Origin: Alphaproteobacteria bacterium
Lineage (GTDB): Bacteria > Pseudomonadota > Alphaproteobacteria > UBA828
DNA length: 64,000 nt
NCBI GenBank assembly: GCA_965221125.1
Contig: CBDCRW010000007.1
Coordinates: 32,001 to 96,000, forward strand
Direction of reading: 5' to 3'
The translations under genes were made by a program, and so were the position numbers. Positions 11,519 to 46,302 of the stretch are shown one piece after another; the first letter of the stretch is position 1, and every line of letters begins with the position of its first letter. The notes below the pieces were generated by a model that worked only from the letters and a program-made list of their open reading frames with translations, had not been told where the DNA came from and did no database searches.

Positions 11519-11519
11519 G

Positions 11520-24509: not shown

Positions 24510-24522
24510 GGGCACTCCCCTC

Positions 24523-28313: not shown

Positions 28314-29378
28314 ATGAGCACGCGGCTGCCCGAAGAGGATGCGGCCATGCGGCATGACGAAGCCTTCAAAGCCATTTTCTCCCACAAGATTTCGGTCGAG
28401 CATCTGCTCCGCTTCCTCGCCGGCACGATCGACGACGGGCCGGACTGGATCGCGGCCTTCGACCCCGAGACCCTGGAGCCGGTGCCCACCGAGCGCATCG
28501 ACGAGACCCTGCACCGCCACCTCAGCGACCTGGTCTGGCGCATGCGCCGGCGCGACGGCGGCGAAGAGGATTGGGCCTACCTCTTCGTGCTGATCGAGCT
28601 CCAGTCGTCGGTGGATCATCTGATGGCGTTCAGGGTTCGCACCTATGTCGACCTGCTCTATCGCGGGCTCCTGGCGGGCCGCCGCTTCGGCGCCTCGGAC
28701 CGTCTGCCGCCGGTGCTCCCCGTCGTGCTGTACAACGGTAAATCTCCGTGGACGGCGGTGGCGAGCGTGGAGGAGTTGGTTGCGCCGGCGGTCCGCCCCT
28801 CAGGCCCCGTGGCCCCAGTGCCCTTCTACGCCGGCGCGACGTACGTGACGCTTGACGTCGGCCGGGTCGAGGCCGGAGACTCGCCACCGGACGATGTGCT
28901 CTCTCTCGTGATCGGCATCGAGCGGATGTCATCTTATAGTGAGGGATACGCGACGCTGCGTGAGGCGTTCTCTGTCTTGCGCGGCGCCGAGCACCGGGAG
29001 TTGCGCCGGACGTTTCATGCTTGGTTCACCATGCTTGCCGGGCAGGGCGCCGGAGGCGCTGCAATCGAGGAGTTCGAGGAGATGGAACGGATTCCTGCAG
29101 AAGGAGAGATGCGGACGCCGGTCCAGGACCGCGTGCGCGCATGGCAGGAGGCAGAACGCGAGCAGGGACGCGCGGAGGGCATCGAGCAGGGCATCGAGCA
29201 GGAACGCGCCTTGCTGCGACGCCTCATCGAACGCAAGTTCGGTGCGGAGGTCGCCGAGCGCGCTGCGCCCCTGCTGGCCGGGACCGGGGAGCCGGAGCGG
29301 CTGGCCGACGTCGGCGAATGGATCATCGACTGCGCCTCGGGCGACGAGCTGATCGCGCGGCTGGAGCGCGCAGGCTAA
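28314..29378 (+). CDS. Rpn-family recombination-promoting nuclease / putative transposase (PD-(D/E)XK)
   Basis: HDEAFKAIFS, SDLVWR, LIELQSSVDHLMAFRVRTY, LPPVLPVVLYNG, C-terminal EQGRAEGIEQG...RKFG. Confidence 0.88.
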   Translation: MSTRLPEEDAAMRHDEAFKAIFSHKISVEHLLRFLAGTIDDGPDWIAAFDPETLEPVPTERIDETLHRHLSDLVWRMRRRDGGEEDWAYLFVLIELQSSVDHLMAFRVRTYVDLLYRGLLAGRRFGASDRLPPVLPVVLYNGKSPWTAVASVEELVAPAVRPSGPVAPVPFYAGATYVTLDVGRVEAGDSPPDDVLSLVIGIERMSSYSEGYATLREAFSVLRGAEHRELRRTFHAWFTMLAGQGAGGAAIEEFEEMERIPAEGEMRTPVQDRVRAWQEAEREQGRAEGIEQGIEQERALLRRLIERKFGAEVAERAAPLLAGTGEPERLADVGEWIIDCASGDELIARLERAG

Positions 29379-30767: not shown

Positions 30768-30816
30768 GGGCGATAGAAGCGCCGCCTGTCGCTCGTTCCA
30801 GGCGCGCTCCCCGGCA

Positions 30817-32013
30817 TCACGCAGGCCCGCTCCGGTCACTCCCGCCCGGCATGATATCGGCGAAGATGCTGGCAGCCACCAGGGCCGCGGATTCCTTCAC
30901 CGAGTCCCGCGCCAGGTGCGCATACCGCGAGGTGGTCTGTATCTTGCGGTGACCCAGAAGCTTGCCGATCATCGTGAGGTCCTCGCCAAGCGCCAGGGCG
31001 CGCGACGCGAAGCTGTGACGCAGGTCATGAAGCCGCACGTCGTCGAGATCGGCGCGCTCCCTCACGCGATACCAGTAGTAGGCAATGTGCTTCTGCCGCT
31101 CGCCGGTCTCACGGCCCGCGATCACCCAGGGGTTGTCCGCAAGGCGCGGCAGCCCGGCCAGAACACGCGCCGCCGCCGGCGACAGCGGCACGATGCGAGG
31201 ACCGGTCTTGGAGTCGCGAAGCTGGATCTCGTTCCGGTGCAGCGCCACGTCGTCCCAGAGAAGCGTCAGCACCTCGCCGGACCGGCATCCGGTCAGCATC
31301 AGGAGCTTGATCGCCGCAGCCGCGTGAACCGGAACCCGGCCCTCGGCCTCGAGATCTTCCAGGGCCTGACCGAGACGGCGGAACTCGTCCTCGGTCAGAA
31401 AGCGCTCCAGCCGTCTCGTCGGGTTGCGCGTCACGAAGCGGCAGGGGTTGCTGCCGGCAGGCAGCAGGCCCCACGCCTCCGCCCGGTTCAGCATCCGCGA
31501 CAGCGCGCCCACCGTGTCGTTCGCAGCCACCGGCGTCTTGCGCAGGCGGTAGTGGAGCTCGGCAACGTGCTTGCGGTCGAGCTCGGCGATCGGCACCTTG
31601 CCCAGCTTCGGCAGGATGTGCCGCTCGATCGATTGCCTGTAGCCCTTGACCGTGTTCGGCTTGCAGCGAACCGCCACGTGCTCGCGGAGGTATCTATCCG
31701 CAAGCTCGGCTACCGTCGGCCCGCCGGCTGCGTCCCGCCCGGCCCCCGGCTCATCGCCCGCCTCGATGCGGGTGAGAACCACGGCGCCCTCCTGGCGCGC
31801 CTCGTCGGCAGAGATCACCCCGTGCCGGCCGATCGAGATCCGCTTCAGGCCCCGCGGGCCCTTGCGCTGCACCATATAGCTCTTGCACCCGTTGGGATAG
31901 ACCCGGACCCCGAAGCCCGGAAGCTCCCGGTCCCAGCACATGAACTCCTTCTCACCGGGCGTCAGTGCGTCGACCACCCGGTTGGACAGCGATCTCTTTT
32001 TCAGTCGCGGCAT
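30817..32013 (-). CDS. Tyrosine integrase with Arm-DNA-binding domain (subtype B)
   Basis: WDRELPGFGVRV, LTGCRSGE, DSKTG, LHDLRHSFAS, LLGHRKIQTTSRY. Confidence 0.93.
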   Translation of the reverse strand: MPRLKKRSLSNRVVDALTPGEKEFMCWDRELPGFGVRVYPNGCKSYMVQRKGPRGLKRISIGRHGVISADEARQEGAVVLTRIEAGDEPGAGRDAAGGPTVAELADRYLREHVAVRCKPNTVKGYRQSIERHILPKLGKVPIAELDRKHVAELHYRLRKTPVAANDTVGALSRMLNRAEAWGLLPAGSNPCRFVTRNPTRRLERFLTEDEFRRLGQALEDLEAEGRVPVHAAAAIKLLMLTGCRSGEVLTLLWDDVALHRNEIQLRDSKTGPRIVPLSPAAARVLAGLPRLADNPWVIAGRETGERQKHIAYYWYRVRERADLDDVRLHDLRHSFASRALALGEDLTMIGKLLGHRKIQTTSRYAHLARDSVKESAALVAASIFADIMPGGSDRSGPA

Positions 32014-32031
32014 GTTCCAGTCCTCCGTCCT

Positions 32032-33258
32032 TTACGCCGCCTCCGCCGACGACATGCAGCCGGCTACGTCCTGGGTGGCACCCTCCGTGCGCAGGATGTC
32101 GTCCTCGATGCTGCCGCCCACGCGGGCCACGGCAACTTTCTCCGCCTCCTGCGACAGGTGCGCGTACCGCGCCGTGCTGCTCACGTCCGTGTGGCCGAGA
32201 AGACGGCCGATCATCGGCAGCTGAAGACCCAGAGCCAGGGCGCGCGAGGCAAAGCTGTGACGCAGGTCATGAATGCGCACGTCCTCGACCTCTGCCTTCT
32301 CCCGCACCCGGTGCCAGTGGCTGGTCAGCGTCGCCAGATGGCGGTTGGGCTTGCCCCCTGTGATCACCCAGGGGCTGCGCCTCACCCGCTTGATCCCCGC
32401 CAGGACCTCCAGCACGGCAGGCGTCAGCGGCACCATCCGCGCACCGGTCTTCGCATCGCGCAGGCGAATCTCGCCGGCCTTGCGGTCGATGTCGCTCCAC
32501 CTGAGCGTCTGTATCTCCCCGAGCCGGCACCCCGTCAGCATCAGAAGCCGCAGCGCCGCCGCAGCCCTCGCCGACACCGGGCCCTCGGCCTCAAGCTCGC
32601 ATAGCGCCTCGCCCACCCTGCGGTACTCGTCCTCGGTGAGGAAGCGCTCGCGGCGACCCTCCTTGTAGCGCAGAACGAACCGGCACGGGTTGCCGCCGGG
32701 GGACGCCAGACCCCACGCCTCCGCCAACGAGAACATCTTCGACAGCACCATCAGCGCCCGGTTCGCAGCGCGCGGCGTCTCCCGCAGGCCATAGTGCAGT
32801 GCTTCGACCTCGGCACGCCCCACCTTGTCCAGGGACATCGCGCCCAGCGCCGGCAGGATGTGGTTCCTGAGCGAGCCCTTGTAGATGCCCTGCGTGTGGG
32901 CGTTGCAGTGCACCGCGACATGGGCCTCGAGGTAGCGCTCGGCCAGTTGGGCGACGGTGAGCACAGGCTCGGACTCCGCCTTCGCCGGGTCCTCGCCCTT
33001 CTTGATGCGGGCGATGGCCGCAGCAGCCTTCTTGCGCGCCTGATCGGGGGTAAGATCGCCGTGGCGTCCGAGCGAGACGCGCCTGATGCCCACCGGCCCG
33101 CGGCACTGCGCGACATAGATCTTGGCGCCTGAGGGGTAGACCCTGACGCCGAAGCCGGGCAGCTCCTTGTCCCAGAAGGTGGCGTCCTTCTTCTCGACGG
33201 CGAGCGCGTCGACGGTGCGCTTCGAGATCGAGAGTTCGCTTCGTTTAGGCATCGTCAA
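32032..33258 (-). CDS. Tyrosine integrase with Arm-DNA-binding domain (subtype A)
   Basis: WDKELPGFGVRV, LTGCRLGE, IHDLRHSFAS, LLGHTDVSSTARY. Confidence 0.93.
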   Translation of the reverse strand: MTMPKRSELSISKRTVDALAVEKKDATFWDKELPGFGVRVYPSGAKIYVAQCRGPVGIRRVSLGRHGDLTPDQARKKAAAAIARIKKGEDPAKAESEPVLTVAQLAERYLEAHVAVHCNAHTQGIYKGSLRNHILPALGAMSLDKVGRAEVEALHYGLRETPRAANRALMVLSKMFSLAEAWGLASPGGNPCRFVLRYKEGRRERFLTEDEYRRVGEALCELEAEGPVSARAAAALRLLMLTGCRLGEIQTLRWSDIDRKAGEIRLRDAKTGARMVPLTPAVLEVLAGIKRVRRSPWVITGGKPNRHLATLTSHWHRVREKAEVEDVRIHDLRHSFASRALALGLQLPMIGRLLGHTDVSSTARYAHLSQEAEKVAVARVGGSIEDDILRTEGATQDVAGCMSSAEAA

Positions 33259-33639
33259 GCTCCGCGTTCATCATACCTTCGTTCGCCGGGTGGCGCAGTC
33301 ACCGGGGGCCTGAGCAGCCGTGCGCCGCCTCGCCAAGAACAGCCCGTCCAGGTCCTGTCCTCACGGCCATCACCCCCCTGTCACCCGAGGACCGAATCCC
33401 GGCCTCCGGCGGCAAATTCGGGGTGGGCGAAATCGGCCGAATTTACCGTCATCACTTCGGTAATCCCCGACATCAAACCCCAGCGTATTGGATCGTACAT
33501 CTGACATATCGTAGAGGCATGTGCGCGGATCGTCAACCCACTGTGACAACAACAGTTATCGTACTCCTACGTAGCTCTGCGTAGGTCTGCGTAGGTCTGA
33601 CGGCGAAAGTGGGGAAAACGCTACACCGTACTTTTACAA

Positions 33640-33714
33640 GAGGAGAGCCTCGAAGCCATGAAGAAGACGAAGCTGACTCGCAGCTTGCTGGCGGCGTTCT
33701 CGATCGTCGCCCTC
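33640..33714 (+). repeat. 75-bp leader (RBS plus signal peptide) inverted-repeated at 38647-38721
   Basis: 72/75 identical by manual alignment. Confidence 0.9.
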
Positions 33715-35172
33715 ACGGCCGTCATGTACGGCTGCACCCACAGCAGTGACAATCCGCCGGCGACGGAGATGGAACAGACGCCGGCCGAGCAGATTGCCGC
33801 GCTTCAGGCGCAGATCAATACCCTGCGGGCGGAACTTGGGCTGGATCCGATCGACATCGACGACCTGACCGGCAGCGTGGCTACCCTCACGCAGCAGGTG
33901 GCCGATCTTCAGAAGCAGATCGACGACGCGCAGGACGCCGAGGACAAGGCTGCCGCTGCGGCTGCCGCCAAGGACGCTGTGGCGTTGTTCGACGGTATCA
34001 CCGAAACCACCAGTGACCTGAGTGTTGCAGTCAGCGCTGTTACCGACAAACACGGCGGTGGCATGGCTTCGCTCACGGCCACGGCCTTGGTTCCCGGTAT
34101 CGCTGGTGACGACACGGTGAAATCCGCTGAGCCCATGCTGGGCATGTGGCAGGGCACGATGCTCACCGATTCCGTTCCCGCCATTCCTAGCACCGCCACC
34201 AATGCGGGCACCAGCAGCACCGTGGTCGTCTACACGGACATCGCGGCACCGAAAGCGGTCCCCTTTGGCGACGTGCACACGCTCGACGCGAACGGGAACT
34301 TTGCAATTGTCGCTGCTGCCGACGCAAACCCTCACGTAGGGCTGATTTCTGCGTCCGCGTTCGAGCACACCGGCCGAATGACTCATGATCCCGATGAGGG
34401 CGACGCCAATGAGACTATCCGCGTCAGGGGCATGTTCAACGGGGCGGCGGGTGAATACCGTTGCGCTGAGGGCGGCACGACGGGCACGTGCGCGTCCATA
34501 GAGTCGTCAGCTGGTGTCAGGCTCGTGGGCACGTGGGTCTTCGATCCCGATTCCGGCGCCATGGCCATGATGGTCGACCCATCCTTCGCCTATTTCGGCT
34601 GGTGGCTGAACAAGGGCGGCACTGCAGGTGTCGAGGCTGGCGTGTTCCACGGCGTAACGGACGGTACCGGAGACGACGAGTTGCTCGGTACGGTCACTGA
34701 GGCCGACTTTACCGCGTTGGGTGGCACGGCCACTTATAGTGGTTCAGCGGCTGGCAAGTACGCTCTGAAGCCGAGCCTCTCCGCCGCCTCCGGTGGCCAC
34801 TGGACGGCCGATGCGACCCTGACCGCCGACTTCGGGAGCGAGACTGCTAACGGAATGATCTCCGGCATGGTCGAAAACTTCATGGCCGGCGGCGAGATGA
34901 TGGACTGGAGCGTCTCCCTTGGCGAGACGTCCTTTACTGACGCGACGGGTGCGTTCGACAGCACTGTTGACACTGCTGGCTCCGAGGTTGCCGATGACGA
35001 TGTGGTCTGGACCATCGGCGGGGTTGCCGGAGCGGAATCCGGGTCATGGTCGGGCGGTCTCCGCGCGGGAGGCGACAACAATGTGCCGACACTGGCCACG
35101 GGCGTGTTCTCCGCAACCCACGGCACAGTCGGCCACATCATGGGCGCGTTCGGCGCACACCTCGACGAGTAG
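33658..35172 (+). CDS. Lipoprotein type B, TbpB-like surface lipoprotein with coiled-coil stalk
   Basis: Lipobox MYGC; FAYFGWWL, GTATYSGSAAGKY, ATLTADFG, ISGMVENF, GHIMGAFGA terminal strand. Confidence 0.82.
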   Translation: MKKTKLTRSLLAAFSIVALTAVMYGCTHSSDNPPATEMEQTPAEQIAALQAQINTLRAELGLDPIDIDDLTGSVATLTQQVADLQKQIDDAQDAEDKAAAAAAAKDAVALFDGITETTSDLSVAVSAVTDKHGGGMASLTATALVPGIAGDDTVKSAEPMLGMWQGTMLTDSVPAIPSTATNAGTSSTVVVYTDIAAPKAVPFGDVHTLDANGNFAIVAAADANPHVGLISASAFEHTGRMTHDPDEGDANETIRVRGMFNGAAGEYRCAEGGTTGTCASIESSAGVRLVGTWVFDPDSGAMAMMVDPSFAYFGWWLNKGGTAGVEAGVFHGVTDGTGDDELLGTVTEADFTALGGTATYSGSAAGKYALKPSLSAASGGHWTADATLTADFGSETANGMISGMVENFMAGGEMMDWSVSLGETSFTDATGAFDSTVDTAGSEVADDDVVWTIGGVAGAESGSWSGGLRAGGDNNVPTLATGVFSATHGTVGHIMGAFGAHLDE

Positions 35173-35193
35173 CCACACTTCGAACTTGTTGCT

Positions 35194-35226
35194 GGGCGGC
35201 GGCCTTCGGTCGCCGCCCTTTTTCTT
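35194..35226 (+). terminator. Rho-independent terminator of lipoprotein B
   Basis: GGGCGGCGGC-CTTCG-GTCGCCGCCC followed by TTTTTCTT. Confidence 0.85.
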
Positions 35227-35313
35227 GCTCTGTCCGCCGGGCCACAGTCCCCCCGTCCGTCCTCGTTTCCCTTTCCCGTCCCGCTCCACGCTTAAGGCCC
35301 GGCGAGCGCACCC

Positions 35314-35949
35314 CTACCGATGTCGCGGCTGCGGCAGGCCCGCCAGCGACTCCAACGACCGCACCAGCCGCACCAGCTCGAACTGCCGGCCGATGCCCTG
35401 CTTGGCAAAAATGTTCTTCATGTGCCAGCGGATCGTGTTCTCCGTGCGCCCGCTCGCCCGCGCGATGTCGCGCACGGTTTTGCCCTCGGCCAGCCACACC
35501 GCCACGCGGCTCTCCATCGGCGTGAGACCGAAGCTCGCCGCCACGAGCGCCGGATCGATCCGCGTCCGGCTTGTCGGGTCGATCACCAGCACGAGCGCGG
35601 CGACGCGGTGCGCGCGCATGTCCGTGCCCCCTTCGTCCACTGGGCTCACGTGCAGTACGAGCCCCGGCAGGTCGAGCGTGCGCCTCACCATCATCGAGCC
35701 GCCGGCGCCCTGGCCGCCGCAGCACGGCAGCGCACGCGCCAGCAGCGCCTGAAGCGCGACGTCGTCCGCCGGCGCGCGGGCGTGGAGGGAGCCGCCTCGG
35801 TCGGACAGGCCGTCGCCCCGTCGCAGCAGGTCGCTGGCGTGGTCGCTCGCCGCGACGACGCGGCCGCGCCGGTCCAGCTGGATCACGCCGGACCGGGTGC
35901 CGCCGAGCAGCACGGCCGGGATGCGCTCGAGCGCGTCCCGTCGGCTCAC
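35314..35949 (-). CDS. LuxR-type HTH regulator, internally deleted relative to paralog at 49380
   Basis: GVIQLDRRGRVV PAS-like segment; LTPMESRVAVWLAEGKTVRDIA...TIRWHMKNIFAK HTH. Confidence 0.75.
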   Translation of the reverse strand: MSRRDALERIPAVLLGGTRSGVIQLDRRGRVVAASDHASDLLRRGDGLSDRGGSLHARAPADDVALQALLARALPCCGGQGAGGSMMVRRTLDLPGLVLHVSPVDEGGTDMRAHRVAALVLVIDPTSRTRIDPALVAASFGLTPMESRVAVWLAEGKTVRDIARASGRTENTIRWHMKNIFAKQGIGRQFELVRLVRSLESLAGLPQPRHR

Positions 35950-36291
35950 GACGGCGTTCCCGTTCCCGCTGGCTGCAAGAGCCCACCTCGTCGCTCCTGA
36001 GCGGAATGCCTCCCTCATTCCGCTCGCCGTGTTGCAGCGGACGCATCGCCGGCACCCGTCACTCCATGCAGACGTCCATGCCCGAATTGAAACGCTCCTC
36101 CTGGATGAAGCAGGCGGACGAGGGCCTGGGCAGGCCGGTGGGCGAATGCCGCCAACCCGTTGCGGACCGGCGGTTGACGCGCGATGCGCTTGCCCAAACC
36201 CGTTTCGGCAATCGTTAGGCCGAACGCGTACCCCACCGGGATTGGGGGCTTCACCGGGCGCGTGCCTCCCTAGACTTCATCCGCTGCGCGC

Positions 36292-36643
36292 GAGAGACGG
36301 CTCCGGCGCCCGCACCGGGGGACCGTAACGGCGGTAGCCTGCCCGCTCTCCCTCCCGCGCCCCGCGCTCGCCCGGCCCGAGGGCGGCGAAGTGAGATGCG
36401 GCAGCGTGTATTTTTTGCGGGTTTTGCCGAGACAAGCCGAGATAAGCCGAGACAAGCCGAGACAAGGTGAGACGGCACATCACGGTCCAGGCGCGCCCGC
36501 CAGCGCTACCGGGGGCGTCGCCGGGCGCGCCTGCGGCGGCGTCCCGCATACCCGTCGTGACACGCGCGCTCGCACCTCTCATGGCGCCATCCTGCCGCGG
36601 AATCCGCGCACCGTTCACCGCACCATGGTCCGGGCGCCGGGAG
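36292..36643 (+). repeat. ~350-bp non-coding element with tandem GCCGAGACAA decamers (copy 1)
   Basis: Five 10-bp units at 36426-36475; exact 29-bp and 24-bp blocks shared with 52963-53328. Confidence 0.85.
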
Positions 36644-36853
36644 CAGGCGCCGCGCGGCAGCAAACGAGTTGTTAGCCGACTAGCGCCGGGCCGCCAGGCC
36701 CGGACGGCGCGCTAGCGCCGCGCGCCGAAGGCGCGGAGCCAAGCGAACGGAGTGAGCGCCCGGCGACTGAGGGAAACAAAAAAAACCAGCGCCCGCCGTC
36801 GAGGGAAACAAAAAAAGTCTCCCGCCTGCCCTCAGGGCCGGCGGGAACACGAC

Positions 36854-36887
36854 AAAAAAAGAGGGTGGCGCGGTGTGCGCCACCCTC
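36854..36887 (-). terminator. Rho-independent terminator of lipoprotein B'
   Basis: GAGGGTGGCGC/GCGCCACCCTC 11-bp stem next to A7 on + strand (U7 on - strand). Confidence 0.85.
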
Positions 36888-36951
36888 GTAACGAAGCTTA
36901 CTCTTGCAACGTCAGGTTCCCATGGGCGGGAGCCGGACCTGCTGCCTTGCT

Positions 36952-38703
36952 CTAGTCGTCCTGTATCCGGGCACCGAAGGCGCCAAGCGCGTGCCCGTTG
37001 ACGAAGTGGGCATCGAAAGTACCGCTCACGGAGGTCGGCGCATCGGTCTCCGTGGTAGCCGCGTCCTCAATACCGTGGAGCTGACCGGCCCAGGTTCCTG
37101 CAGCGCCGTCGCCGCCGGCGCTCGTCCCCATCGTCACACCGGTTATGGCACCGGTGCCTTCGGTGATGTTCTGGAGGTCATCCATGTCGTCATCGGTGGT
37201 GTCGCTATCCGGACCTCTGTTCAGCATGACCACCCAGCTCGAATCGATCGGGTCGCCGTTCATGTCCATGAAGTTGGAGATCGTCCCGCTGATCGAGTTT
37301 GTATTTCTTGCAGCTACGTTCTCACCGCCGAAGCTCGCCGTCAGTTTGGCTTGGGCGGTGAACTGCCCGCCGCGCAACGGTATCTGCGTGCCGTCCGAAC
37401 CGAAGCTCTTGATCATGTAGAGACCCGTTGCCGGGCCGGCGTAGTCGGCCGTGCCGACAACACCGGTGGTGGGACGATTCGCGACGCTGCTTTCGGCAAA
37501 GGCGAGGACGGAGTACGTCAGTTCGCCGTCATCGTTGTTCTCTTCGTGCAGCCAGTAACCGAAGGTGAGGTAGTCGTCGTCGATTTCCACGCCGGCGACC
37601 ATGTAGGGGTCGGCACCCGTCGCCTGCGCGGTCGGCGTGAAGGTCCACGTGCCACCGAGGGATGATAGGTTGCCGTCCTTATCGGAGCCGACCGAGCACG
37701 TGCCCGTGCACGCATATGTGCCGGGAACGCCGTGGAACATGCCCATGATCGAGGGTTCGGCCTCGTTGACGTCAGTAGTAGCCGCGTTGTCGGTGTACTC
37801 GATCATTTGATGCGCTGCCGTCAACCCATGAGCGAAATCGATCAGAGAGCGGGCGCCGGCATTCACCGTACCGGCCAGCGTAAGCACTCCGCTGGCAGCG
37901 CTAGCTACACCGCGCCACGCGGCGTGGCCAGTGGGAACGCCAGCGTCTGCGTAGTACGTGCTGTATTCGACGGAATCGTTGGCAGCCCGGTCCGTGTAGG
38001 CGACGGCCGTGTCCATCGAGAACTCGTCCGTGTTCTCGGTGTCGGCGTCGTCTTCCTTCATCCGCGTGTAAGCAGAACCGGCCCACCCGTCGATTGAGGC
38101 AATCGCCATGTCCGACTCGGCGAACATGTCGTCCTCCGCCACCACGCCGGCAGTAGCGGGCAGCGTGGTCGTGAGCTTCCCGTGATTAACGTCGAAGTTG
38201 AAGGGCAATTGATCGCCAGTGGTGCCGCTGTCGGCATCCGCCCTGGTGCTGTCAGGGCCGATCGCCATGGCGATGCGCATGGCCTCCGCCGCGATCTCCT
38301 CGTCCGTGGGACCCGGAGGAGGAGGCGTGTAGTCGGCCGTGTGGATGGTGCCCGTCACCGTTACTGTATCGTCGTCATTGATGGTGACGCGGCAGGGCCC
38401 CATGGCGCAGGTCAGGTTCACACCCCCGACACTGACCGTCGCCCCCATTTCGTGGTCCACCCCCGCGAGACCTTCGGCATCTGCGAAAGCGGCCGCCAGG
38501 GCAGCGTCGACCGAATACGTGCCGGGCGTGACGGCCTGACCGCCGGTCACACCCGCCAGGGTCAGGTTGCCGTCGACGGTGGGCGTTTCCGTCGTCGGCG
38601 TCGTGGCGTCGTCGCTGCTGTGCAGGCAGCCGGACAGGACGACCGAGAGGGCGACGATCGAGCACGCCGCCAGCAAACTGCGAGTCAGCTTCGTCTTCTT
38701 CAT
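36952..38703 (-). CDS. Lipoprotein type B', TbpB-like surface lipoprotein
   Basis: Same MKKTKLTRSLLAA leader, lipobox LSGC; DYLTFGYWL, GTADYAGPATGLY, ISGTISNF, GHALGAFGA. Confidence 0.82.
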   Translation of the reverse strand: MKKTKLTRSLLAACSIVALSVVLSGCLHSSDDATTPTTETPTVDGNLTLAGVTGGQAVTPGTYSVDAALAAAFADAEGLAGVDHEMGATVSVGGVNLTCAMGPCRVTINDDDTVTVTGTIHTADYTPPPPGPTDEEIAAEAMRIAMAIGPDSTRADADSGTTGDQLPFNFDVNHGKLTTTLPATAGVVAEDDMFAESDMAIASIDGWAGSAYTRMKEDDADTENTDEFSMDTAVAYTDRAANDSVEYSTYYADAGVPTGHAAWRGVASAASGVLTLAGTVNAGARSLIDFAHGLTAAHQMIEYTDNAATTDVNEAEPSIMGMFHGVPGTYACTGTCSVGSDKDGNLSSLGGTWTFTPTAQATGADPYMVAGVEIDDDYLTFGYWLHEENNDDGELTYSVLAFAESSVANRPTTGVVGTADYAGPATGLYMIKSFGSDGTQIPLRGGQFTAQAKLTASFGGENVAARNTNSISGTISNFMDMNGDPIDSSWVVMLNRGPDSDTTDDDMDDLQNITEGTGAITGVTMGTSAGGDGAAGTWAGQLHGIEDAATTETDAPTSVSGTFDAHFVNGHALGAFGARIQDD

Positions 38704-38721
38704 GGCTCCGAGGCTCTCCTC
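38647..38721 (-). repeat. Second copy of 75-bp lipoprotein leader
   Basis: Reverse complement of 33640-33714. Confidence 0.9.
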
Positions 38722-39003
38722 ATTCTGAAGAGGCCTCGTGGGCGGCCTTGAGTCGCCGCGAGCACGGGACTTGTTCCGCAGATCGGCCTAGAATTGGCCG
38801 CGCAACACCACGGTAAACCTCTCCAACACCATCGAAATCAGAGGCGCCGGACATGCGCTGGGGTTCAGGGGCCCGAATGCCGGGTGCTTACGGGCGCGGA
38901 CGGGTGATTCCGCCCGCTTGCGCATTGAAGCCGAGTCGACTCGCCGTGTTGACGAGATTCGCGCGCAGGTTCGGCCCTGCCGCGCTCGTTGGACGAGACG
39001 ATC

Positions 39004-40257
39004 ATGCCACGCCGTAGCACGCTGACGCTGAGCAGCCAGGCGGTGGACAGCCTCCCGGCCGAAGGCAGGGACCGGATCTTCTGGGACCGCGAGCTGCCGG
39101 GGTTCGGGGTGCGCGTCTACCGCTCGGGCCAGAAGGTCTACGTCGTCCAGAGCCGGGCCCGGGGCGGACCAAGGCGCGTCACCCTCGGCAGCCACGGGGA
39201 ACTCACCACCGCGCAAGCCAGGCTCCGCGCCGGCCAGGTCATCGACCGTATCAAGGGGGGCAGAGAGCCCATACCGCCCCCGGCCCAGGACGGCGCCACC
39301 GTCGCCGACCTCGCGGCCCGCTACCTGAGCGCCCACGTGGCGCAGAACTGCAACGCCCACACCGCCGGCATCTATCGCGGATCGCTCGAGAACCACATCC
39401 TGCCTGCGCTGGGCATGATGCCGCTCGCCATGGTCGAGACGGCGCATGTGGCGGCGCTGCACTACCGGCTCCGTGAGACACCGCGCGCCGCCAACCGCGC
39501 GCTCTCCGTCCTCTCCAAGATGTTCTCCCTCGCTGCCGCCTGGGGCCTGGTGGCGGACGGCACCAACCCCTGCCGGGGCGTGCGCAAGTACAAGGAGAAG
39601 AAGCGCGAGCGCTTCCTCACCCGGGACGAGTACCGCAGGCTCGGTATGGCGCTGGCTGAGGCGGAAGCCGAGGCAGAGGCCGGCGCAGACGGCGCGGTCT
39701 CCCTCTACGCCATCGCGGCGTTGCGCCTGCTCATGCTCACCGGCTGCCGCCGCAACGAGATACTCACCCTCCGCTGGGACGATATCGACCGCACCGCAGG
39801 CGAGTTTCGCCTGCGCGACGGCAAGACCGGGGCCCGCATGGTCCCGCTCACACCCACCGCAGAGACGGTGCTGGCAGGCATCGTCCGTGTGCCGAACAAC
39901 CCCTGGGTCATCGTCGGCAAGCAACCCGGCACCCACCTCTCCACCATCACCGCAGACTGGTATCGGCTCCGCGCCCACGCCGGCCTCGACGACGTGCGCA
40001 TTCACGACCTCCGCCACTCCTACGCCAGCCGCGCGCTCGCGGCCGGCGAGAGCCTGAGCATGATCGGCAGGCTGCTGGGCCATGCCGACATTCAGAGCAC
40101 CGCCCGCTACGCGCATCTCGCGCGCGAGACCGAGCGCCTCTCCGCCGCCCGCGTCGGCGGCAGCATCGGCGCAGACATCGGTGCCGACATCGGTGCCGAA
40201 GGTCGTGCCGAGGGCACTGCCGACATCGGCGCGGGAAAGGACGGCCCGTCCTCATGA
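39004..40257 (+). CDS. Tyrosine integrase with Arm-DNA-binding domain (subtype A)
   Basis: WDRELPGFGVRV, LTGCRRNE, IHDLRHSYAS, LLGHADIQSTARY; shares CNAHT..IY.GSL.NHILPALG and LRETPRAANRAL with 32032..33258. Confidence 0.93.
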   Translation: MPRRSTLTLSSQAVDSLPAEGRDRIFWDRELPGFGVRVYRSGQKVYVVQSRARGGPRRVTLGSHGELTTAQARLRAGQVIDRIKGGREPIPPPAQDGATVADLAARYLSAHVAQNCNAHTAGIYRGSLENHILPALGMMPLAMVETAHVAALHYRLRETPRAANRALSVLSKMFSLAAAWGLVADGTNPCRGVRKYKEKKRERFLTRDEYRRLGMALAEAEAEAEAGADGAVSLYAIAALRLLMLTGCRRNEILTLRWDDIDRTAGEFRLRDGKTGARMVPLTPTAETVLAGIVRVPNNPWVIVGKQPGTHLSTITADWYRLRAHAGLDDVRIHDLRHSYASRALAAGESLSMIGRLLGHADIQSTARYAHLARETERLSAARVGGSIGADIGADIGAEGRAEGTADIGAGKDGPSS

Positions 40258-41323
40258 ACATGGCAGTGCCTTCGGCACTTCCCGCGCAGGGCACGATCAC
40301 GGACCGCACCGTGGCGGCGCTGTCAGCGGGCAGGGACACCGTGATCTGGGACCGGGCGCTCGCCGGGTTCGGGGTCCGGGTCTACCCCTCGGGCGCCAAG
40401 GTCTACGTCGTGCAGGCGCGGGGGCCGGACGGGTCCAGGCGCATCACCGTGGGCCGTCACGGGGTGATTGGGGCGAGCGAGGCGCGCAGGCGCGCCACCC
40501 TCATCCTCGCCCGCATCAGGGCGGGCGAAGACGCTGCTGCGGAGGCTCGCCGGCCCGAGAGCGTCACCGTCGCAGCCCTCGCCGACCGCTACCTGCGGGA
40601 GCACGTGGCGGTGCGCTGCAAGCCCACGACCGCAGCCCAGTACCGGCTTGCCATCGAGCGCTACATCGTGCCCGCCCTCGGCACCCTCCCCGTCTCCTCC
40701 CTCGGCCGTTCCCAGGTCGCCGACCTGCAGCACGCGCTCCGCGACAGGCCGGCCATGGCCAACCTGGTGGTCGCGATGCTTTCGCGCATGATCGACCATG
40801 CGATGGCCTGGGGCGTGGCGGGGGAGATCAGCAACCCCTGCCGGTCCGTCCCAAGATATCGGACGCGCCAGCGCGAGCGCTTCCTCACCGACGCGGAGTT
40901 CCAGCGGCTCGGCCGCGTTGTTGTTTCGCACGTTATTTGACGCCGAATCTCCCAGATTATTTGACGTGATCGCTGCCCTGATTTCCCAGATTGCTCGGTC
41001 TTTTCCGGATCGAAGCGTAGGAGCTCATGGTCTCTGCGGGCGGTCCGGGGTCGCTGTCTGATTGAGGTTTGGACTGGTGCTTGAGGAGAGCTGACGAGGT
41101 GTCGCGCGGCCGTCGGCGCGTCAAGCGGCTGCGCCGCTCCTGCGCTTCGCTTCGGCCCTTCGGGTGACTCGCCACCGTCCACACGACGAAGTGCTGCCAT
41201 GGCCTGAAGCAAGCTTCCGGCCACGGACTGGCCGCTCACCTGACGTAGTATCCCGGTGGAGGCGCAGCGCCTTCCGGACCGTTGGGGAAGGGTGGTTCCC
41301 GACGGCGGTTCCGGCTCGAACCC

Positions 41324-42364
41324 CTAGGCGTTGGCGGAACCGGGCTCCGGGAACCGCGGGGCCTGCGGCCGACTGCTGCCGTTGGCGGCGGCGGCCGCCG
41401 CCCGCTTGTCCGCTGCGCCTGCGACGACGCTGTAGCCGCCCTCGGCGTTGCGCGCGACGCGACCCTCCTGGACGAGCTTTTGCAAGATTACGCCGACGGT
41501 CTTGTGCCGGGTCGCGGCGCGTTCCCGGATCTGGCGTTGCGAGAGCGGCGCCCCGGCGTCGGCGAGCGCCTTGAGAACGCGGCATTCGGGTGTTTCGGGC
41601 TGAGGCGCCCCGCCGCCGGCCGTGGGCGGCTGGCGCAGCCGGAAGGAGGGCTCCTCTCCGTCTTCCTTGAGCTCGATCTCGATGTCGTCGAGACCGCGTG
41701 CGGCGCGATGCTCGACGGTCATGAGGGTCTGCCGGTCCCGGCGGCGCAGGTAGAGGTTCGAGTCCCCCCAGGCGTGCAGCTCACTGCTGCCCCGCAGGGC
41801 CTGCCCCGGCCTCGTGGCCCCGCTCTTGCGGGCGTGGTGGACGAGGAGGACGGCGGTCTCGAAGCGGCGTTGCAGGTCGCGCAGGAAGCCGAGGATCGGG
41901 GCGACGTCCGCAACCGTGTTCTCGTCCACGCCGTGCAGGCGGACCAGGGGGTCGAGGACCACGAGGCGCGGTGCGATGCGCTCCACGGTCTGCTGCAGGC
42001 GGCGGCGGTCGTCGAGATGGTCGAGGCGCAGTGTGGGCACGTCGATGACGGCGATGTCGAGGGTCTCGAAGCGGGCGCCTGCGGCGCGGGCGATCCCCTG
42101 CAGGCGCTTGCGCACGAGGTGGCCGGCGTCTTCTGCGGCGAACAGCAGGACCGGGCCAGGCCGGGCCGGGGCGAAGTGCCGCAGGCATGGGACGCCGGCG
42201 GCGACTGCGACCGCGAGGTCCAGCGCCAGGATGGACTTGCCGCACTTCGGCTCGCCGCCGACGATGCCGACGGCCTGCTCGCCCCATAGCGTGTCCACCA
42301 GCCATTGCTGCTCGCGCGGCCGCTCCTCCAGCTCGATCGGGGCGCGGGTCGGGAAGCCGGTCAT
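41324..42364 (-). CDS. RecA/AAA_25-like ATPase with C-terminal wHTH
   Basis: WLVDTLW, Walker A GEPKCGKS, LFAAED, VVLDPL, LVHHARK, LRGSSELHAWGD. Confidence 0.85.
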   Translation of the reverse strand: MTGFPTRAPIELEERPREQQWLVDTLWGEQAVGIVGGEPKCGKSILALDLAVAVAAGVPCLRHFAPARPGPVLLFAAEDAGHLVRKRLQGIARAAGARFETLDIAVIDVPTLRLDHLDDRRRLQQTVERIAPRLVVLDPLVRLHGVDENTVADVAPILGFLRDLQRRFETAVLLVHHARKSGATRPGQALRGSSELHAWGDSNLYLRRRDRQTLMTVEHRAARGLDDIEIELKEDGEEPSFRLRQPPTAGGGAPQPETPECRVLKALADAGAPLSQRQIRERAATRHKTVGVILQKLVQEGRVARNAEGGYSVVAGAADKRAAAAAANGSSRPQAPRFPEPGSANA

Positions 42365-43164
42365 GGCCGCAGTTCCTCGAGCGCGTGCTGCAGGTGGTCG
42401 GCACTGACGGTCCTCGCCTCGTCGAGAGCGGCGGCGGAGAGCGCGTAGTGGGCGATGCGGTTGATCTGGCGCGGCAGGCCGCGCGCGCCCTGGAACAGGG
42501 CCTCGACGGCGGGCTCTTCGAACAGCGGCAGTTCGCATCCCGCGAGCCTGAGGCGGTGCTTGATGTAAGCGTCGACCTCGTCGCGGTCGAGACCGCTCAG
42601 GTGGTGGCGGACGACGAGGCGCTGGCTGAGGGATTCGTGCATGGCCATGGCCAGGCGGCGCCTGAGCTCGGTCAGACCGACGAGGACGAGGCACAGGCGC
42701 TGCTCTGCATCCATGGCGAAGTTGGTGAGCAGGCGCAGGTCCTCAAGGACGTCGTTGCGCAGATGATGGGCCTCGTCGATGACGAGGACCGGCAGCTGCT
42801 TGGCCTCGGTGACGAGGCGGGAGATCTCGTTTCGGATGGCCTGATAGGCCGAGGCGCGGGAGCGCTCGATGGGCAGGCCGATCTCCCACGCGATCGCCTT
42901 GTACATGTCGAGCACGTTGCCCGTGGTCAGCGAGACGTAGTGGACCCGGTAGAGGCCTGGATGAAGCTGCGCGGTCAGATGCCGGCACACGGTGGTCTTG
43001 CCGGAGCCCACCTCGCCGGTGAGCAGGCCGATGCCGCGCAGGTCGATGAGGTGGCCGAGCCTGGCCTCGGCCTCGCGGCGCGCGTTGGACTCGAACAGCT
43101 CGTCGGTCTCTGCCGGGGTCTCGAAGGGCAGGCGGGTGAAGGCGAAGTGGCGCAGGTACATCAC
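42361..43164 (-). CDS. ExeA/MuB-like AAA ATPase
   Basis: YLRHFAFTRLPF, TGEVGSGKTT, VIDEAHHL, LVGLTEL, GLPRQINR. Confidence 0.9.
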   Translation of the reverse strand: MMYLRHFAFTRLPFETPAETDELFESNARREAEARLGHLIDLRGIGLLTGEVGSGKTTVCRHLTAQLHPGLYRVHYVSLTTGNVLDMYKAIAWEIGLPIERSRASAYQAIRNEISRLVTEAKQLPVLVIDEAHHLRNDVLEDLRLLTNFAMDAEQRLCLVLVGLTELRRRLAMAMHESLSQRLVVRHHLSGLDRDEVDAYIKHRLRLAGCELPLFEEPAVEALFQGARGLPRQINRIAHYALSAAALDEARTVSADHLQHALEELRP

Positions 43165-44489
43165 TCGTCCTCCTTCTTGTCCTTGAGGTTGCGCATGGCC
43201 AGCGGCGAGGGCGGAGGCTCGGGCGCCGGATCTTCGGCCTCGATCTCCCTGGCCGGGTAGGTGCGCCTGACGGCGGTATTGGCGTAGGCGTCGAGAGGGC
43301 TGGCCTTGCCGGCCGGCTTGCCGTCATGGACCACGTCGAGAGGGCGCGAGGGCGGCGCGGCCGGGTCGTAGCGCAGGATGACGTTCTGACCCACCAGGAG
43401 GGCGTCGACCTCGTAGACGCGGCCGTTCAGACTAACGGTGCGGTCCTTGTAGACACGGCGCCTGGCCTCGAAGAGGAACAGATCGTCGAGGTCCATGGTG
43501 GCGTCGGGATAGCGCACGCCGGCCGAGGCCAGCGCCCACTGCTCAAGCGGGGTGCGCCCCTCGTCGAGGCCACGATGCGGGCTGTTGTGATACTCCCCCT
43601 CGATCCAGGCCCAGAGGCTGCGGTTGAGCGCCTCCAGGCTGTCGACGTCATCGCCGAGGTGGCGGAGCCAGCCGGCCCGGAGGGTGCGGAAGAAGCGCTC
43701 GATCTTACCCTTTCCCGCTGGCTGGAACGCCCTTGCGTGAATCAACGCAACGCCGAGCCTGGCGCAGACCAGGGAGAGATGACGGGAGCGGTAGGCGCTT
43801 CCGTTGTCGACGTACAAGCGGGCCGGGAGGCCGCGCCGGATCAGCGCGTCCTTGAACACCGGCAGGAACGCCGCAGTGTTCTCCGCCATGGCGAAGGCGG
43901 CGAACGGGATGACGCGGGTGGCGTCGTCGATGAAGGCGATCAGGTAGGTCTTGCGCCGGGTTCGGCCGTGCCGGACCTTGGGTCCGTGCATGACGTCGCT
44001 CATCCACATCTCGCCGGCATGCCGGAAGGCGAAGCGGCGGCGATCCGCCCCGTCGGGCGGCTTCTTGTCGAACAGGCCCTCGCGGCTGAAGAGGCGGTGC
44101 ACGGTGGACGAGGCGAGCGGGTGGTCGATACCCTCCTCCTTGACCTTCTGGATGATGGCGCGAACCGACAATGCGTCGTTCTCGGTCTTCAGCGCGATGA
44201 GGCGCTCGGCGACCTCGGGCGGCAGCCGCCGGGGCTTCCCCCGGTCGGTGCGGGGCTTGGGGTAGAGCGCGTCGAAGCCGCCGTAGCGGTAGTCCTTGAT
44301 CCAGCGCCGCATGGTCTCGGCGGCGACCCGGGTCCTGGTGGTTCCGGGGATCGTGTAGGTCTTCTCGGCTTTGGCGCGCATCATCGCGCCGGCACCCGGT
44401 GCACCCACGGGCAGATGCACCAGATCGGCGATGACGTCGTATCGGAAGAGCGCGATCTGTTGGCGAAGGTCGTCGTCTGAGCTGTTCAT
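43161..44489 (-). CDS. DDE transposase (Mu/TnsB-like, with C-terminal Mu domain)
   Basis: IALFRY N-terminus, WMSDVMHG, FIDDATR, LYVDNGSAY, GKGKIERFFRT, YHNSPHRGL. Confidence 0.92.
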   Translation of the reverse strand: MNSSDDDLRQQIALFRYDVIADLVHLPVGAPGAGAMMRAKAEKTYTIPGTTRTRVAAETMRRWIKDYRYGGFDALYPKPRTDRGKPRRLPPEVAERLIALKTENDALSVRAIIQKVKEEGIDHPLASSTVHRLFSREGLFDKKPPDGADRRRFAFRHAGEMWMSDVMHGPKVRHGRTRRKTYLIAFIDDATRVIPFAAFAMAENTAAFLPVFKDALIRRGLPARLYVDNGSAYRSRHLSLVCARLGVALIHARAFQPAGKGKIERFFRTLRAGWLRHLGDDVDSLEALNRSLWAWIEGEYHNSPHRGLDEGRTPLEQWALASAGVRYPDATMDLDDLFLFEARRRVYKDRTVSLNGRVYEVDALLVGQNVILRYDPAAPPSRPLDVVHDGKPAGKASPLDAYANTAVRRTYPAREIEAEDPAPEPPPSPLAMRNLKDKKEDE

Positions 44490-44534
44490 GGTGCGATCCT
44501 CGTTCAGGGACTCCCTGGCCCCGGGATCGTCACG

Positions 44535-45170
44535 CTACGAACTCTCCGGCGGCGGGTCCGGCCCCGCCCGTTGTTGGAACTGCGGTTTGCGATTCCCCAC
44601 GTCGATGCCGTGGGGTTGGAAGCCCAGAGGCGCGGGTAGCGTCCGGAGCTGCCCGGCGACCAGGCCGCGCAGTTCCATCAACGCGCTGTCGCTCTTCAGA
44701 CGCTCGCGCACCGCGCTCATGGTGGGCGCGCAGCCCGCGAGCAGGTCGGGGATCAGGCCGATGACGCGCACAAGCGCGTCGTGCACAAGCTTCAGCCTGC
44801 GGCGGATCCAACGCACGGCGCCGGGAAGCTCGATGGCGTCCTCGTCCTCGGGGCAGCGCACCTCGTCCGCTGCCTCCTCCAGGCTGCCGGCCTCCTCCGC
44901 CACGACAACAACCGCTTCCAGCGCATCGAGCGTGCCCGGCAGCCGCGCCGCCAGACAGTCGGCCAGCAGGCCGATGGTCGTATGGCTCTCACGGCAATAC
45001 CAGCGAGGAACCCTTGCGCCGGGCGGGGTCTTCCGCTCGTAGGTGCCGTGGCTTGCCACAGAACATCCGCCGTGCGGGTGATTCGGGCAGCGCTCAAGCC
45101 TTGCGTCGCGCCACGCCTCGGTCTTAACGTATTCCTCGCTGGTGAGCCCCGTTTCGTAGCGAAGCTGCAC
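44535..45170 (-). CDS. Transposon-associated Cys/His protein (DUF6431-like)
   Basis: CPNHPHGGC...HGTYERK...RWYCRESHTT..LLADCL; first gene of the transposon. Confidence 0.7.
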   Translation of the reverse strand: MQLRYETGLTSEEYVKTEAWRDARLERCPNHPHGGCSVASHGTYERKTPPGARVPRWYCRESHTTIGLLADCLAARLPGTLDALEAVVVVAEEAGSLEEAADEVRCPEDEDAIELPGAVRWIRRRLKLVHDALVRVIGLIPDLLAGCAPTMSAVRERLKSDSALMELRGLVAGQLRTLPAPLGFQPHGIDVGNRKPQFQQRAGPDPPPESS

Positions 45171-46302
45171 CGGCCCTGGCCCGGCGGGAGTTCCGTCCCC
45201 CGGGCCTCTCTTTGTCGTTCAGTGAGAGGCCAAGATTACGGACGCTCCCCGCCGCCGCCAAGCTGTGGAGCCGTGGACGCGTCCTGCGGACCGATCGGCG
45301 TCCTGCGGACCGTGTGGACAGCCCGTGGACAAGCTGGCGCTTGCCCACCGCCTGACCACACTCGCCGATCTCGCGCCCACCGCTCCACAGCTTCAACAGC
45401 AATGAGGATTCTGCTGAGGATCAAAAAAATGCCGCAGGCAGCGTCCTTCCCGCACTCGGCCACCATCCCGGGAAATCCACCAACCAATCAAAGTGAGAAA
45501 AAAACCCGTGCTTCTATCCGGCTAGACCGGAAAACAACACGCGTGCTGGACGAGATGGAGGCGGAGGGGCGCATCTCTCCCCATGCGGCGGCGGCGCTGC
45601 GCCTGCTCATGCTCACCGGCTGCCGGCGCAACGAGATACTGACGCTCCGCTGGGAGGATGTGCGACTGGAGGCGCAGGAGCTGCATCTCAGCGACTCCAA
45701 GACCGGCCCGCGCACGGTCTCGCTCTCGCCCGGAGCGGCGGCGGTGCTGGCCGCGATGCCGCGCCTTCCCGGCAACCCCTGGGTGATCCCCGGCACGAAG
45801 CCGGGCGCCCGGCTCTCCAGCCTGTTCGGGCCCTGGCGGCGCGTGCGCGCCCGCGCCGGCCTCGACGACGTGCGCATCCACGACCTGCGCCACTCCTACG
45901 CCTCCCGCGCGCTGGCGCTGGGCGAGAGCCTGCCGGTGATCGCCAAGCTCCTCGGCCACGCCCGGATCCAGACCACCGCACGCTACACCCACCTCACGCG
46001 GGACGCCGTCAGGGATGCAGCCATTCGAGTCGCCGAGGGGATTGCGGAGGATATCCTTCGGGACAGAAGCCCCCAGCCTCCGCGGGCAGCCTTGCGCCGG
46101 AATGGCAGTGCGATCCCGCCTGGCGGGCGCATCGCGCCAGGCATCGATCGAGGTCTCGACGTTCGCGACCTGCGCTCCAACGATGTCAAAGCGTCGGTGA
46201 AGGCATCGGCTGCACGAGTCGCCGCCGAAATCGGGGATGACATTCTCCCGCCATGGACAGGTGGCGGCGGCTGCTTCGCGAGGTTGAGCGCGTCCGAGGG
46301 GC

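Follow-up and report, generated by a model that had tools for sequence, protein, structure and literature searches.

We examined a 64,000-nucleotide (nt) stretch from an uncultured member of the Alphaproteobacteria (lineage UBA828; positions 32,001 to 96,000 of the forward strand of contig CBDCRW010000007.1, assembly GCA_965221125.1), here called the window and numbered from its first letter, in which two convergent lipoprotein genes open with nearly the same DNA. The first, lipoA (33658..35172, plus strand), encodes 504 amino acids (aa), and the second, lipoB (36952..38703, minus strand), encodes 583 aa. A repeat search of the window returned their starts as the arms of an inverted repeat (33640-33774 and 38587-38721; 135 nt, 84% complementary, with 4812 nt between them). 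Both arms contain AGGAGAGCCTCG as well as the ATG and the 26 codons of a lipoprotein signal peptide that ends in the lipobox cysteine (Cys26 in both proteins, which share MKKTKLTRSLLAA.SIVAL..V..GC). Leader A (33640..33774, plus strand) has the Shine-Dalgarno (SD) motif AGAGGAGAGCCTCG, its ATG at 33658, the signal peptide, and the first mature codons, and leader B (38587..38721, minus strand) is its inverted copy, with the ATG at 38703. By direct count, the core of the repeat (33640-33714 against 38647-38721) is identical at 72 of 75 positions and the long arms at 114 of 135. The three core mismatches fall at -6, +27, and +41 from the ATG, and the longest exact run is 30 nt.

Past the leaders the two genes have little in common. 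Their bodies share 175 of 624 residues (28%; E 6e-21 by BLASTP), which makes them highly divergent and still homologous. The DNA that encodes them is poorer in G+C (0.625-0.63 at 33001-35000 and 37001-38000) than the window as a whole (68%, or 0.68). Each gene is followed by its own terminator-like hairpin and T run (35194..35218, plus strand, after lipoA; 36861..36887, minus strand, after lipoB), and a LuxR/GerE-type regulator gene, LuxR1 (35314..36018, minus strand), lies between the leaders. The class-1 upstream region of lipoA, U1 (33259..33639, plus strand), is marked by two conserved boxes, CCGTCATCACT and CCAGCGTATTGG, along with a CTACAC motif and three GCGTAGS repeats; it cannot be aligned with the class-2 upstream region of lipoB, U2 (38722..38988, minus strand), which has a GAGGCCTC palindrome 11 nt before the SD motif.

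Beyond each upstream region lies a tandem pair of tyrosine integrase genes. On the left, intL1 (32032..33258, minus strand) is divergent from lipoA and is followed by intL2 (30817..32013, minus strand). On the right, intR1 (38989..40257, plus strand) is divergent from lipoB and is followed by intR2 (40254..46034, plus strand), which a TniA/TniB-like transposon at 40940-45546 splits into an N-part (40254-40940) and a C-part (about 45546-46034). The transposon carries TniA-like (rve and Mu-transposase C), TniB-like (AAA_22), and AAA_25/MarR genes. All four integrases are proteins of ~400 aa with Arm-DNA-bind_3, SAM-like, and catalytic domains, and the catalytic motifs TGCR, HDLRHS, LLGH, and RYAH are kept in the three intact ones, intL1 included. 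They score 24 bits against a cut-off of 221 with the NCBIfam model of tyrosine-type DNA invertases and also fall far below the NCBIfam cut-offs for integron integrases and XerC/D. By Pfam and NCBIfam, the class-1 module on the left comprises the two integrases and a conserved Rpn/YhgA-like (Transposase_31) gene (28314..29378, plus strand), plus about 0.9 kb. A sequence-only reading of this DNA had reported the 72/75 inverted identity of the ribosome-binding site and signal-peptide DNA, highly divergent mature proteins, differing upstream regions, separate terminators, and flanking integrases, and on all of these points our analysis agrees with it.

We found nothing useful for either lipoprotein in Pfam, and the NCBIfam model slam_lipo gave 21 bits for lipoA (cut-off, 80) and no match for lipoB. 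Structure prediction was more informative. An AlphaFold (AF2) model of lipoA, built on 43 relatives with a predicted local distance difference test score (pLDDT) of 81, shows a coiled-coil N-terminal part followed by a C-terminal handle and beta-barrel. Its top matches in the PDB are fHbp, the TbpB C-lobe, HpuA, hemophilin, PmSLP, and NHBA, with E values from 1.7e-5 and 51 matches at E <= 1e-3. Its paralogue lipoB has the same C-terminal barrel motifs, and its model (pLDDT 69) finds the same PDB targets more weakly (best E 3.2e-3, with no match at E <= 1e-3). By these models, lipoA and probably lipoB are Slam-type surface lipoproteins with a TbpB/fHbp-like fold, the dependence on Slam being predicted and the fold match of lipoB being the weaker. 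The earlier description of the pair as surface lipoproteins is thus supported and can be narrowed to the Slam-dependent type. The window also holds a gene for Slam, the surface lipoprotein assembly modifier (47403..48947, minus strand; TPR and DUF560 barrel, PF04575 at E 1.9e-16). It is the sole Slam gene in the window and lies 8.7 kb from lipoB; neither lipoprotein gene is directly followed by one. Among relatives, a Slam homologue lies 3' of the lipoprotein gene in 11 of the 11 cases with readable downstream DNA.

The leader repeat is neither a chance resemblance nor a purely protein-level feature. When up to 3 mismatches are tolerated, a 40-nt pattern taken from the leader occurs at two places in the 64 kb, both of them the leaders, and none of 100 shuffled sequences matched; no additional leader fragments were found in the window with 26-nt or 40-nt patterns at the same tolerance. 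Where lipoA and lipoB have the same residue (Met and Trp set aside), the same codon is used at 19 of 20 positions in the leader and at 71 of 143 in the bodies (Fisher one-sided p = 5e-5). This difference places the identity of the leaders at the level of DNA, beyond what protein-level selection would give. The sequence-only reading had itself named leader conservation by protein-level selection as part of what would undo its interpretation, and the almost invariant synonymous sites speak against it.

An RNA element in the leader is likewise unsupported. The folding energies of the two leader RNAs are ordinary in comparison with shuffled sequences (z = -0.16 and +0.71), and Rfam gave no match at E <= 1 in 33000-39200. 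A small hairpin is predicted at +13 to +29, and its two variable sites retain G-U pairing. A Chi-like octamer, GCTGGCGG, forms part of the leader. It has 20 sites in the window against 10.2 expected, a number that none of 100 shuffles reached, and with sites across the window it was dropped as a leader-specific signal.

To follow the leader beyond the window, we scanned a collection of assembled genome contigs; the source genome enters this count through its two window copies alone. The count of further copies that the sequence-only reading had suggested thus came from relatives: 16 DNA copies in 15 loci (numbered here with an L prefix) of six related Alphaproteobacteria metagenome-assembled genomes (MAGs), or 18 with the window pair. 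Mean pairwise identity over the 153 pairs is 0.88-1.0 from -15 to +75, falls to ~0.3 upstream of -45, and is 0.47 at +90. The search pattern itself sets positions 0 to +34, the remainder being free. Codons 13, 15, 16, 17, and 22, which lie outside the constraint of the pattern, are each represented by one codon in 18/18 copies, as is the rare codon ACT7, which the pattern also leaves free.

Seventeen of the 18 copies have readable upstream DNA (the remaining one is at a contig end), and all 17 adjoin a tandem integrase module. In 14 of these a divergent integrase gene starts 246-400 nt upstream, and the other three leaders stand at the distal end of a module. Locus L015 has three integrase genes in a row.

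The same association of a constant leader with variable bodies is seen in the proteins. Among 8000 candidates scored, 588 homologues of lipoA were found at E <= 1e-3, mostly in MAGs named Rhodospirillales, Rhodospirillaceae, or Alphaproteobacteria. With residues 1-40 alone as the query, a protein search gave 302 candidates, among which 292 clusters of 277-882 aa bear the leader; several of these carry PF01298, the TbpB barrel. The start MKKxKxTRxLxAA is found in 131 of the 228 proteins compared, every one of which (131/131) has Cys at position 26. For these 131, the median leader identity is 96% and the median body measure (identity x coverage) is 9%. Other lineages of the lipoprotein family have sharply different signal peptides, such as MFNNHLMKVCLAAVFAIGLAAC and MTLWKNLVVALVAAFALAAC, each near-uniform within its apparent lineage; P0014, P0011, P0026, P0009, and P0037 are examples of family members with other leader types. 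Such lineage-uniform alternatives point to concerted evolution rather than to one functional optimum, and from these comparisons a shared leader may be general for the lipoprotein family.

Several comparisons indicate that the leader is where upstream modules and lipoprotein bodies have been re-paired. In the window, L001, L003, and L006, the class-1 module has 94-97% identity over a length of about 2.8-3 kb. Past +85, blastn finds no match between any two of the window, L003, and L006 bodies, and the 116 nt of L001 that can be read there match none of the three. The start of the L001 body is instead 100% identical in L005 and 96.6% identical in L014, two loci with a different upstream type. 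In L010, similarly, upstream DNA of the U2 type precedes a body that resembles lipoA (78% nt and 73% aa identity), and protein P0013 has a rare lipoB-type leader variant (SVVLSGCLHSSDD) on a lipoA-type body that is 64% identical to lipoA.

Leaders also recur in opposed pairs. The window pair is convergent and 4.8 kb apart, and further convergent pairs are found in JAJDUK and OZ253557, 10.4 and 18 kb apart, while those of L001 and L003/L008 are divergent around a 5.2-kb module. In L003/L008, a 5187-nt module lies between two divergent copies of leader, lipoprotein gene, and Slam gene, which match perfectly as an inverted repeat over 17 + 5655 nt. The arms (CBDCQT010000008.1, about 295-5966 and 11154-16825; 5672 nt each, holding the leader, the lipoprotein gene, the Slam gene, and more) begin 17 nt before the ATG, and both sides are unique beyond the repeat. 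Such a perfect repeat would have arisen either by conversion or duplication in the very recent past or as an artefact of assembly. The short-read contig of an independent MAG, L001, has the same module with outward leaders at both ends; its two leader copies have mismatches at +27 and +69, beyond which no difference is seen as far as the contig ends.

The polarity of the segment between the window leaders provides a further comparison. Relative to intR1 and U2, LuxR1 and a DUF559 gene or fragment are reversed in order and orientation between the window and L011 and L015, the two relatives that have both (2/2). A leader-to-leader inversion would predict a reversal of this kind.

The limits of the identity tracts bear on how exchange might occur. 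All tracts start at -17/-18, where different upstream types meet, and their 3' ends vary: about +57 for the window pair, +84 and +110 for orthologues of the module, ~200 nt for L001, and 5.7 kb for L008. An A/G polymorphism at -6 tracks the upstream type, and the polymorphisms from +16 on track the body, not the module; a fixed crossover point, if there is one, would for that reason lie between -6 and +16. Overall, these limits are consistent with conversion or crossover beginning within the shared leader block.

A further class of joint is seen at the distal ends of modules. At the far end of the left integrase module there is a leaderless copy of the SD motif (AGGAGAGCCTGG; 25354..25365, minus strand), preceded by GAGGCCTC palindromes (U4). 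At the corresponding module end, L001 and L003 have a full leader and lipoprotein gene. Over 247 kb, matches to the 11-nt motif RGGAGAGCCTS are confined to the 18 leaders, one other site, and two distal module ends that lack a leader (25354-25365 in the window and 18021 in L013). At the two leaderless ends, no start codon or gene follows the motif, and homology to the leader version of L001 and L003 stops a few bases past it. Thus the distal end of the class-1 module is found in two contexts, with a single point of junction. We considered whether the DNA left of 25353 could be a decayed leader or pseudogene and found this unsupported (global alignment score of 14 against a mean of 7.8, standard deviation of 3.7, and maximum of 23 for shuffles).

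In that same flank there are two short boxes and a triple GCGTAGC repeat that also mark class-1 upstream regions. All class-1 upstream regions (window 33430-33600) have CCGTMATCACT, then AACTCCWGCGTA ~30 nt on, and three GCGTAGS repeats at 10-nt spacing; the same boxes and repeats, pointing outward, are found at 25180-25260, beyond the far end of the left module and beside HigBA. These boxes and repeats may be protein-binding sites, possibly of the arm type.

Taken together, these observations lead us to a reading to which we give about an even chance of being correct, that the leader is a recombination joint at which lipoprotein bodies are re-paired with integrase-bearing upstream modules, mainly by homology, and that an inversion in the window follows from this. 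The joint would be a cassette of ~100 bp (-18 to about +80) made up of the SD motif ARGGAGAGCCTCG, the start codon, and the 26-codon signal peptide, borne by every member of a hypervariable family of Slam-dependent lipoprotein genes in this uncultured clade. Recombination among the copies would hold the cassette near-identical in DNA, and the cassette would connect variable bodies to upstream modules, each with a tandem tyrosine integrase pair and an upstream region of its own. Because the two window cassettes are inverted, the expected outcome of a crossover between them is the flipping of a 5-kb segment (lipoA, LuxR1, lipoB), which would swap the bodies between U1 and U2. Exchange would be mainly homology-driven, by crossover or gene conversion that begins in the leader and reaches a variable distance into the body, and its time scale would be expected to range from the population to the evolutionary. 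For it to act as an expression switch, the promoter activities of U1 and U2 would have to differ. Active flipping in the source genome is plausible, and we infer, rather than observe, the inversion there, its rate, and any effect on expression.

It is important to point out that several observations weigh against the idea of a recombination joint. As the longest perfect run shared by the window leaders is only 30 nt, the rate of homologous crossover between them is expected to be low. Both lipoA and lipoB have complete start signals, an upstream region, and a terminator of their own, so that both may be constantly expressed and an inversion could be phenotypically neutral. A scan for the sigma-70 consensus gave a single promoter-like site, directed toward intL1, and none directed into lipoA or lipoB. 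The end points of the polarity reversal could lie elsewhere, for example in the inverted Slam genes of L011 and L015, and they cannot be placed because the lipoprotein genes in those loci are not orthologous to those of the window. The 5.7-kb repeat comes from one long-read MAG contig with 294 nt of unique DNA on one side, although L001 agrees with it. Lastly, the window lipoprotein genes lack the following Slam gene seen after 11/11 lipoprotein genes of relatives with readable downstream DNA, which indicates that the locus has been rearranged in other ways too.

The principal alternative is a programmed site-specific switch, in which the tandem integrases would have their core site within the leader or at its edge and cause high-frequency inversion and thereby phase or antigenic variation. 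Two candidates for this core are ARGGAGAGCCTCG, a motif of 12-13 nt, and an imperfect palindrome, AAGCTG-ACTCG-CAGCTT, that extends from +13 to +29. We regard a fast, integrase-driven phase switch of this type as possible without being probable. Consistent with it, an integrase module adjoins every readable leader copy; intL1 keeps 97-99% identity as a protein against ~95% for the DNA, and three of the four integrase genes have intact catalytic motifs; RGGAGAGCCTS is near-exclusive to leaders and the two leaderless module ends, with homology breaking just past it; and the shift from upstream-linked to body-linked polymorphism would put a fixed crossover, if one exists, between -6 and +16. There is also a precedent in Mycoplasma agalactiae, where recombination sites likewise lie just 5' of start codons and beside a recombinase gene (PMC2268961). 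However, the recombinases here have the arm-binding N-terminal domains typical of integrases and, as noted above, score far below the invertase cut-off; no silent, promoterless copy was observed; the variable tract ends look like homology-driven conversion; and intR2 is broken in the window. The sequence-only reading had proposed a phase-variable surface antigen switch served by the flanking integrases. Its surface lipoproteins, DNA-level leader conservation, and exchange between upstream regions and bodies (seen here as re-assortment) find support, and the block between the leaders has the opposite polarity in two relatives. The recombinases prove to be arm-domain enzymes of the P4/lambda-like type and not small invertases.

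A broader version of the integrase-driven model seems to us doubtful. Here the integrase module itself would be a self-encoded invertible expression element, a 5-kb segment between inverted copies of the 12-13-nt ARGGAGAGCCTCG, which would double as the SD sequence. It would encode a heteromeric pair of arm-type recombinases and an Rpn-like nuclease and could recombine with any leader on the chromosome, and nested inversions would re-deal bodies among active and inactive upstream regions. The result would be antigenic variation similar to that of sap or vpma loci, carried out by integrase-type enzymes.

Alternatively, the integrase modules could be mobile elements that insert beside the starts of lipoprotein genes, with the leader or SD motif as their target or end, and the identity of the leader and its constant adjacency to the module would then reflect the spread of the element rather than a lipoprotein switch. 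Modules that are 94-97% identical beside unrelated bodies in four genomes would be explained in this way, as would the short inverted module ends (CGAGGCTCTCCT...) and the two alternative contexts at the distal end. The region is crowded with other mobile DNA, and there are known transposons, such as SE, GInt, RIT, and Tn554, that have several recombinases and terminal inverted repeats (PMC10214605). Against this, we found no direct repeats or target duplications at the module ends, and by gene content alone the module has no partner genes of the Tfp/Srap or GinC/GinD type. Moreover, the leader polymorphisms from +16 on go with the body and not with the module, and insertion would leave unexplained why module classes as diverged as about 66% nt identity have a common leader. 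We consider this explanation unlikely. Two related possibilities were rejected: that module, lipoprotein gene, and Slam gene travel as one mobile island, given that near-identical modules carry unrelated bodies, and that the locus is of plasmid origin, as a megablast search of 29500-41000 against PLSDB gave no match.

Finally, it is very unlikely that the leader is conserved solely by need, as a translation-initiation region, mRNA element, or signal peptide for export and Slam display with no special part for recombination. In its favor, the limits of the conserved block are exactly those of the SD motif, the start codon, and a signal peptide that stops at the lipobox Cys, and a hairpin is predicted whose variable sites keep G-U pairing. 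Against it stand the ordinary folding energy and empty Rfam search, the quite different, lineage-uniform leaders of other lineages, and the codon-level identity, mosaic joints, and perfect inverted repeat from -17, the last three of which require recombination.

By analogy, the geometry of the proposed joint is closest to that of the Campylobacter fetus sap locus and the Mycoplasma vpma/vsp/vsa loci. The sap locus encodes S-layer proteins and undergoes nested DNA inversion; its surface-protein genes have a conserved 5' end and divergent bodies, and the exchange is thought to be homology-driven. The window likewise has a conserved 5' end, divergent bodies, and opposed homologues that flank a segment of ~5-6 kb, and its geometry would permit inversions, simple or nested, by which bodies come under new upstream regions. 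There are also clear differences. The conserved 5' block is ~100 bp here and several hundred in sap; every copy here has its own SD motif, ATG, and upstream region (of two upstream classes), whereas sap has a single promoter; and the flanked segment, which in sap carries secretion genes, here encodes tandem tyrosine integrases together with an Rpn-like nuclease. In addition, the proteins here are predicted Slam-type lipoproteins, and the system is known from sequence alone.

With the Mycoplasma loci, the window shares a variable family of surface lipoproteins, a conserved sequence at or just 5' of the start codon, an adjacent tyrosine recombinase gene, and a joint, here a proposed one, beside the start codon. 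In M. agalactiae vpma there is a unique promoter, the recombination sites lie within -1 to -72 of the start codons, and the adjacent recombinase Xer1 is required for switching (PMC2268961). That locus combines one promoter and silent copies with one recombinase shown by knockout to be essential, whereas here tandem arm-domain integrases stand beside each readable copy and several copies are scattered over the chromosome. Also unlike vpma and vsa, which have a dedicated small tyrosine invertase, the window has ~400-aa arm-domain integrases in pairs.

Slam-dependent lipoproteins are mainly known as virulence factors and vaccine antigens of Neisseria and the Pasteurellaceae, and their diversity is ascribed to allelic exchange. 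The window lipoproteins resemble them in the lipobox signal peptide, the variable handle, the C-terminal 8-stranded barrel (a weaker match in lipoB), and, in relatives, the neighboring Slam gene, and differ in having a DNA-identical leader cassette and integrase modules. Described members include TbpB, LbpB, fHbp, HpuA, hemophilin, and PmSLP (Hooda 2017, PMC5449769). The words integrase, mobile, and inversion are absent from the main texts of PMC5449769 and PMC8406197, and a literature search that covered few subscription papers and no supplements found no publication linking Slam lipoproteins to integrases, inversions, or a shared leader.

Other known systems are less similar. Shufflons (the R64 type with Rci and the shufflon-like systems of Bacteroides) use one dedicated invertase to swap C-terminal segments onto one constant expressed N-terminal part. 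Several inverted repeats would permit multiple arrangements of coding segments here as well, but each body keeps its own start, and the locus is not a shufflon. It is not an integron either, as the integrases score 56 bits with integrase_gron against a cut-off of 265 and the lipoprotein genes have their own start signals (attC sites were not searched for). The tandem recombinase genes in an operon-like array and the short inverted ends recall RIT, GInt, SE, and Tn554 elements (PMC10214605), as do the three consecutive integrase genes of L015; a difference is that the present integrases carry Arm-DNA-bind_3. Set apart by gene content and Pfam/NCBIfam only, the class-1 module has no RIT trio, IntA-Tfp-IntB-Srap set, or GinABCD/TnpC set as these are described in PMC10214605, and its integrases score 18.6 bits with the GmtY model (cut-off, 340).

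If the cassette is indeed a joint, it would provide a concrete, testable mechanism of surface variation in uncultured Alphaproteobacteria, whose members in this clade may be host-associated, and it could be an instance of arm-type integrase pairs domesticated for inversion or cassette exchange. Independently of mechanism, we describe a large environmental family with the surface lipoprotein fold in which a DNA-identical start cassette stands always beside tandem integrases. Primers or probes directed at the cassette could be used to catalogue the whole range of variable lipoproteins in metagenomes, and the cassette is a likely cause of assembly breaks in these MAGs.

The DNA around the locus holds a number of other repeated or mobile features. 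A unit of ~1.06 kb occurs twice in inverted orientation (29533-30591 and 46303-47339; 81% nt identity over 1037 nt) and consists of a single open reading frame (ORF) of 340-350 aa with no Pfam or NCBIfam match. It is missing at the same place in L001, L003, and L006, L007 has a distant copy (36% aa identity), and it looks like an unclassified small mobile element. Relative to L001 and L003, the left integrase module has an insertion at 25886-27991 with a 595-aa ORF that combines DruA-like N-terminal and DDE_Tnp_1 transposase domains. A toxin-antitoxin pair of the HigB/HigA type (24192-24897) lies beside the far end of that module, and HigBA in L007 is also beside integrases.

Between and beyond the leaders there are further duplications. 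Tandem 10-nt repeats (GCCGAGACAA and variants) are found at 36426-36475 and 53036-53148, each with a DUF559 endonuclease-like gene 3' of it, as a fragment at 36577-36643 and as a full copy at 53251-53853; the two regions are 86-91% alike. LuxR/GerE-type genes at 35352-35917 and 49940-50505 are 77% identical in inverted orientation over 566 nt, the second of them within a longer gene (49296-50531) with a weak PAS match, and regulators of this type recur between the lipoprotein-Slam operons of relatives. The only tRNA gene in the window, tRNA-Ser(GGA) at 53974-54049, adjoins an IS1595-type transposase gene and may mark where the stretch rich in mobile DNA around the locus ends.

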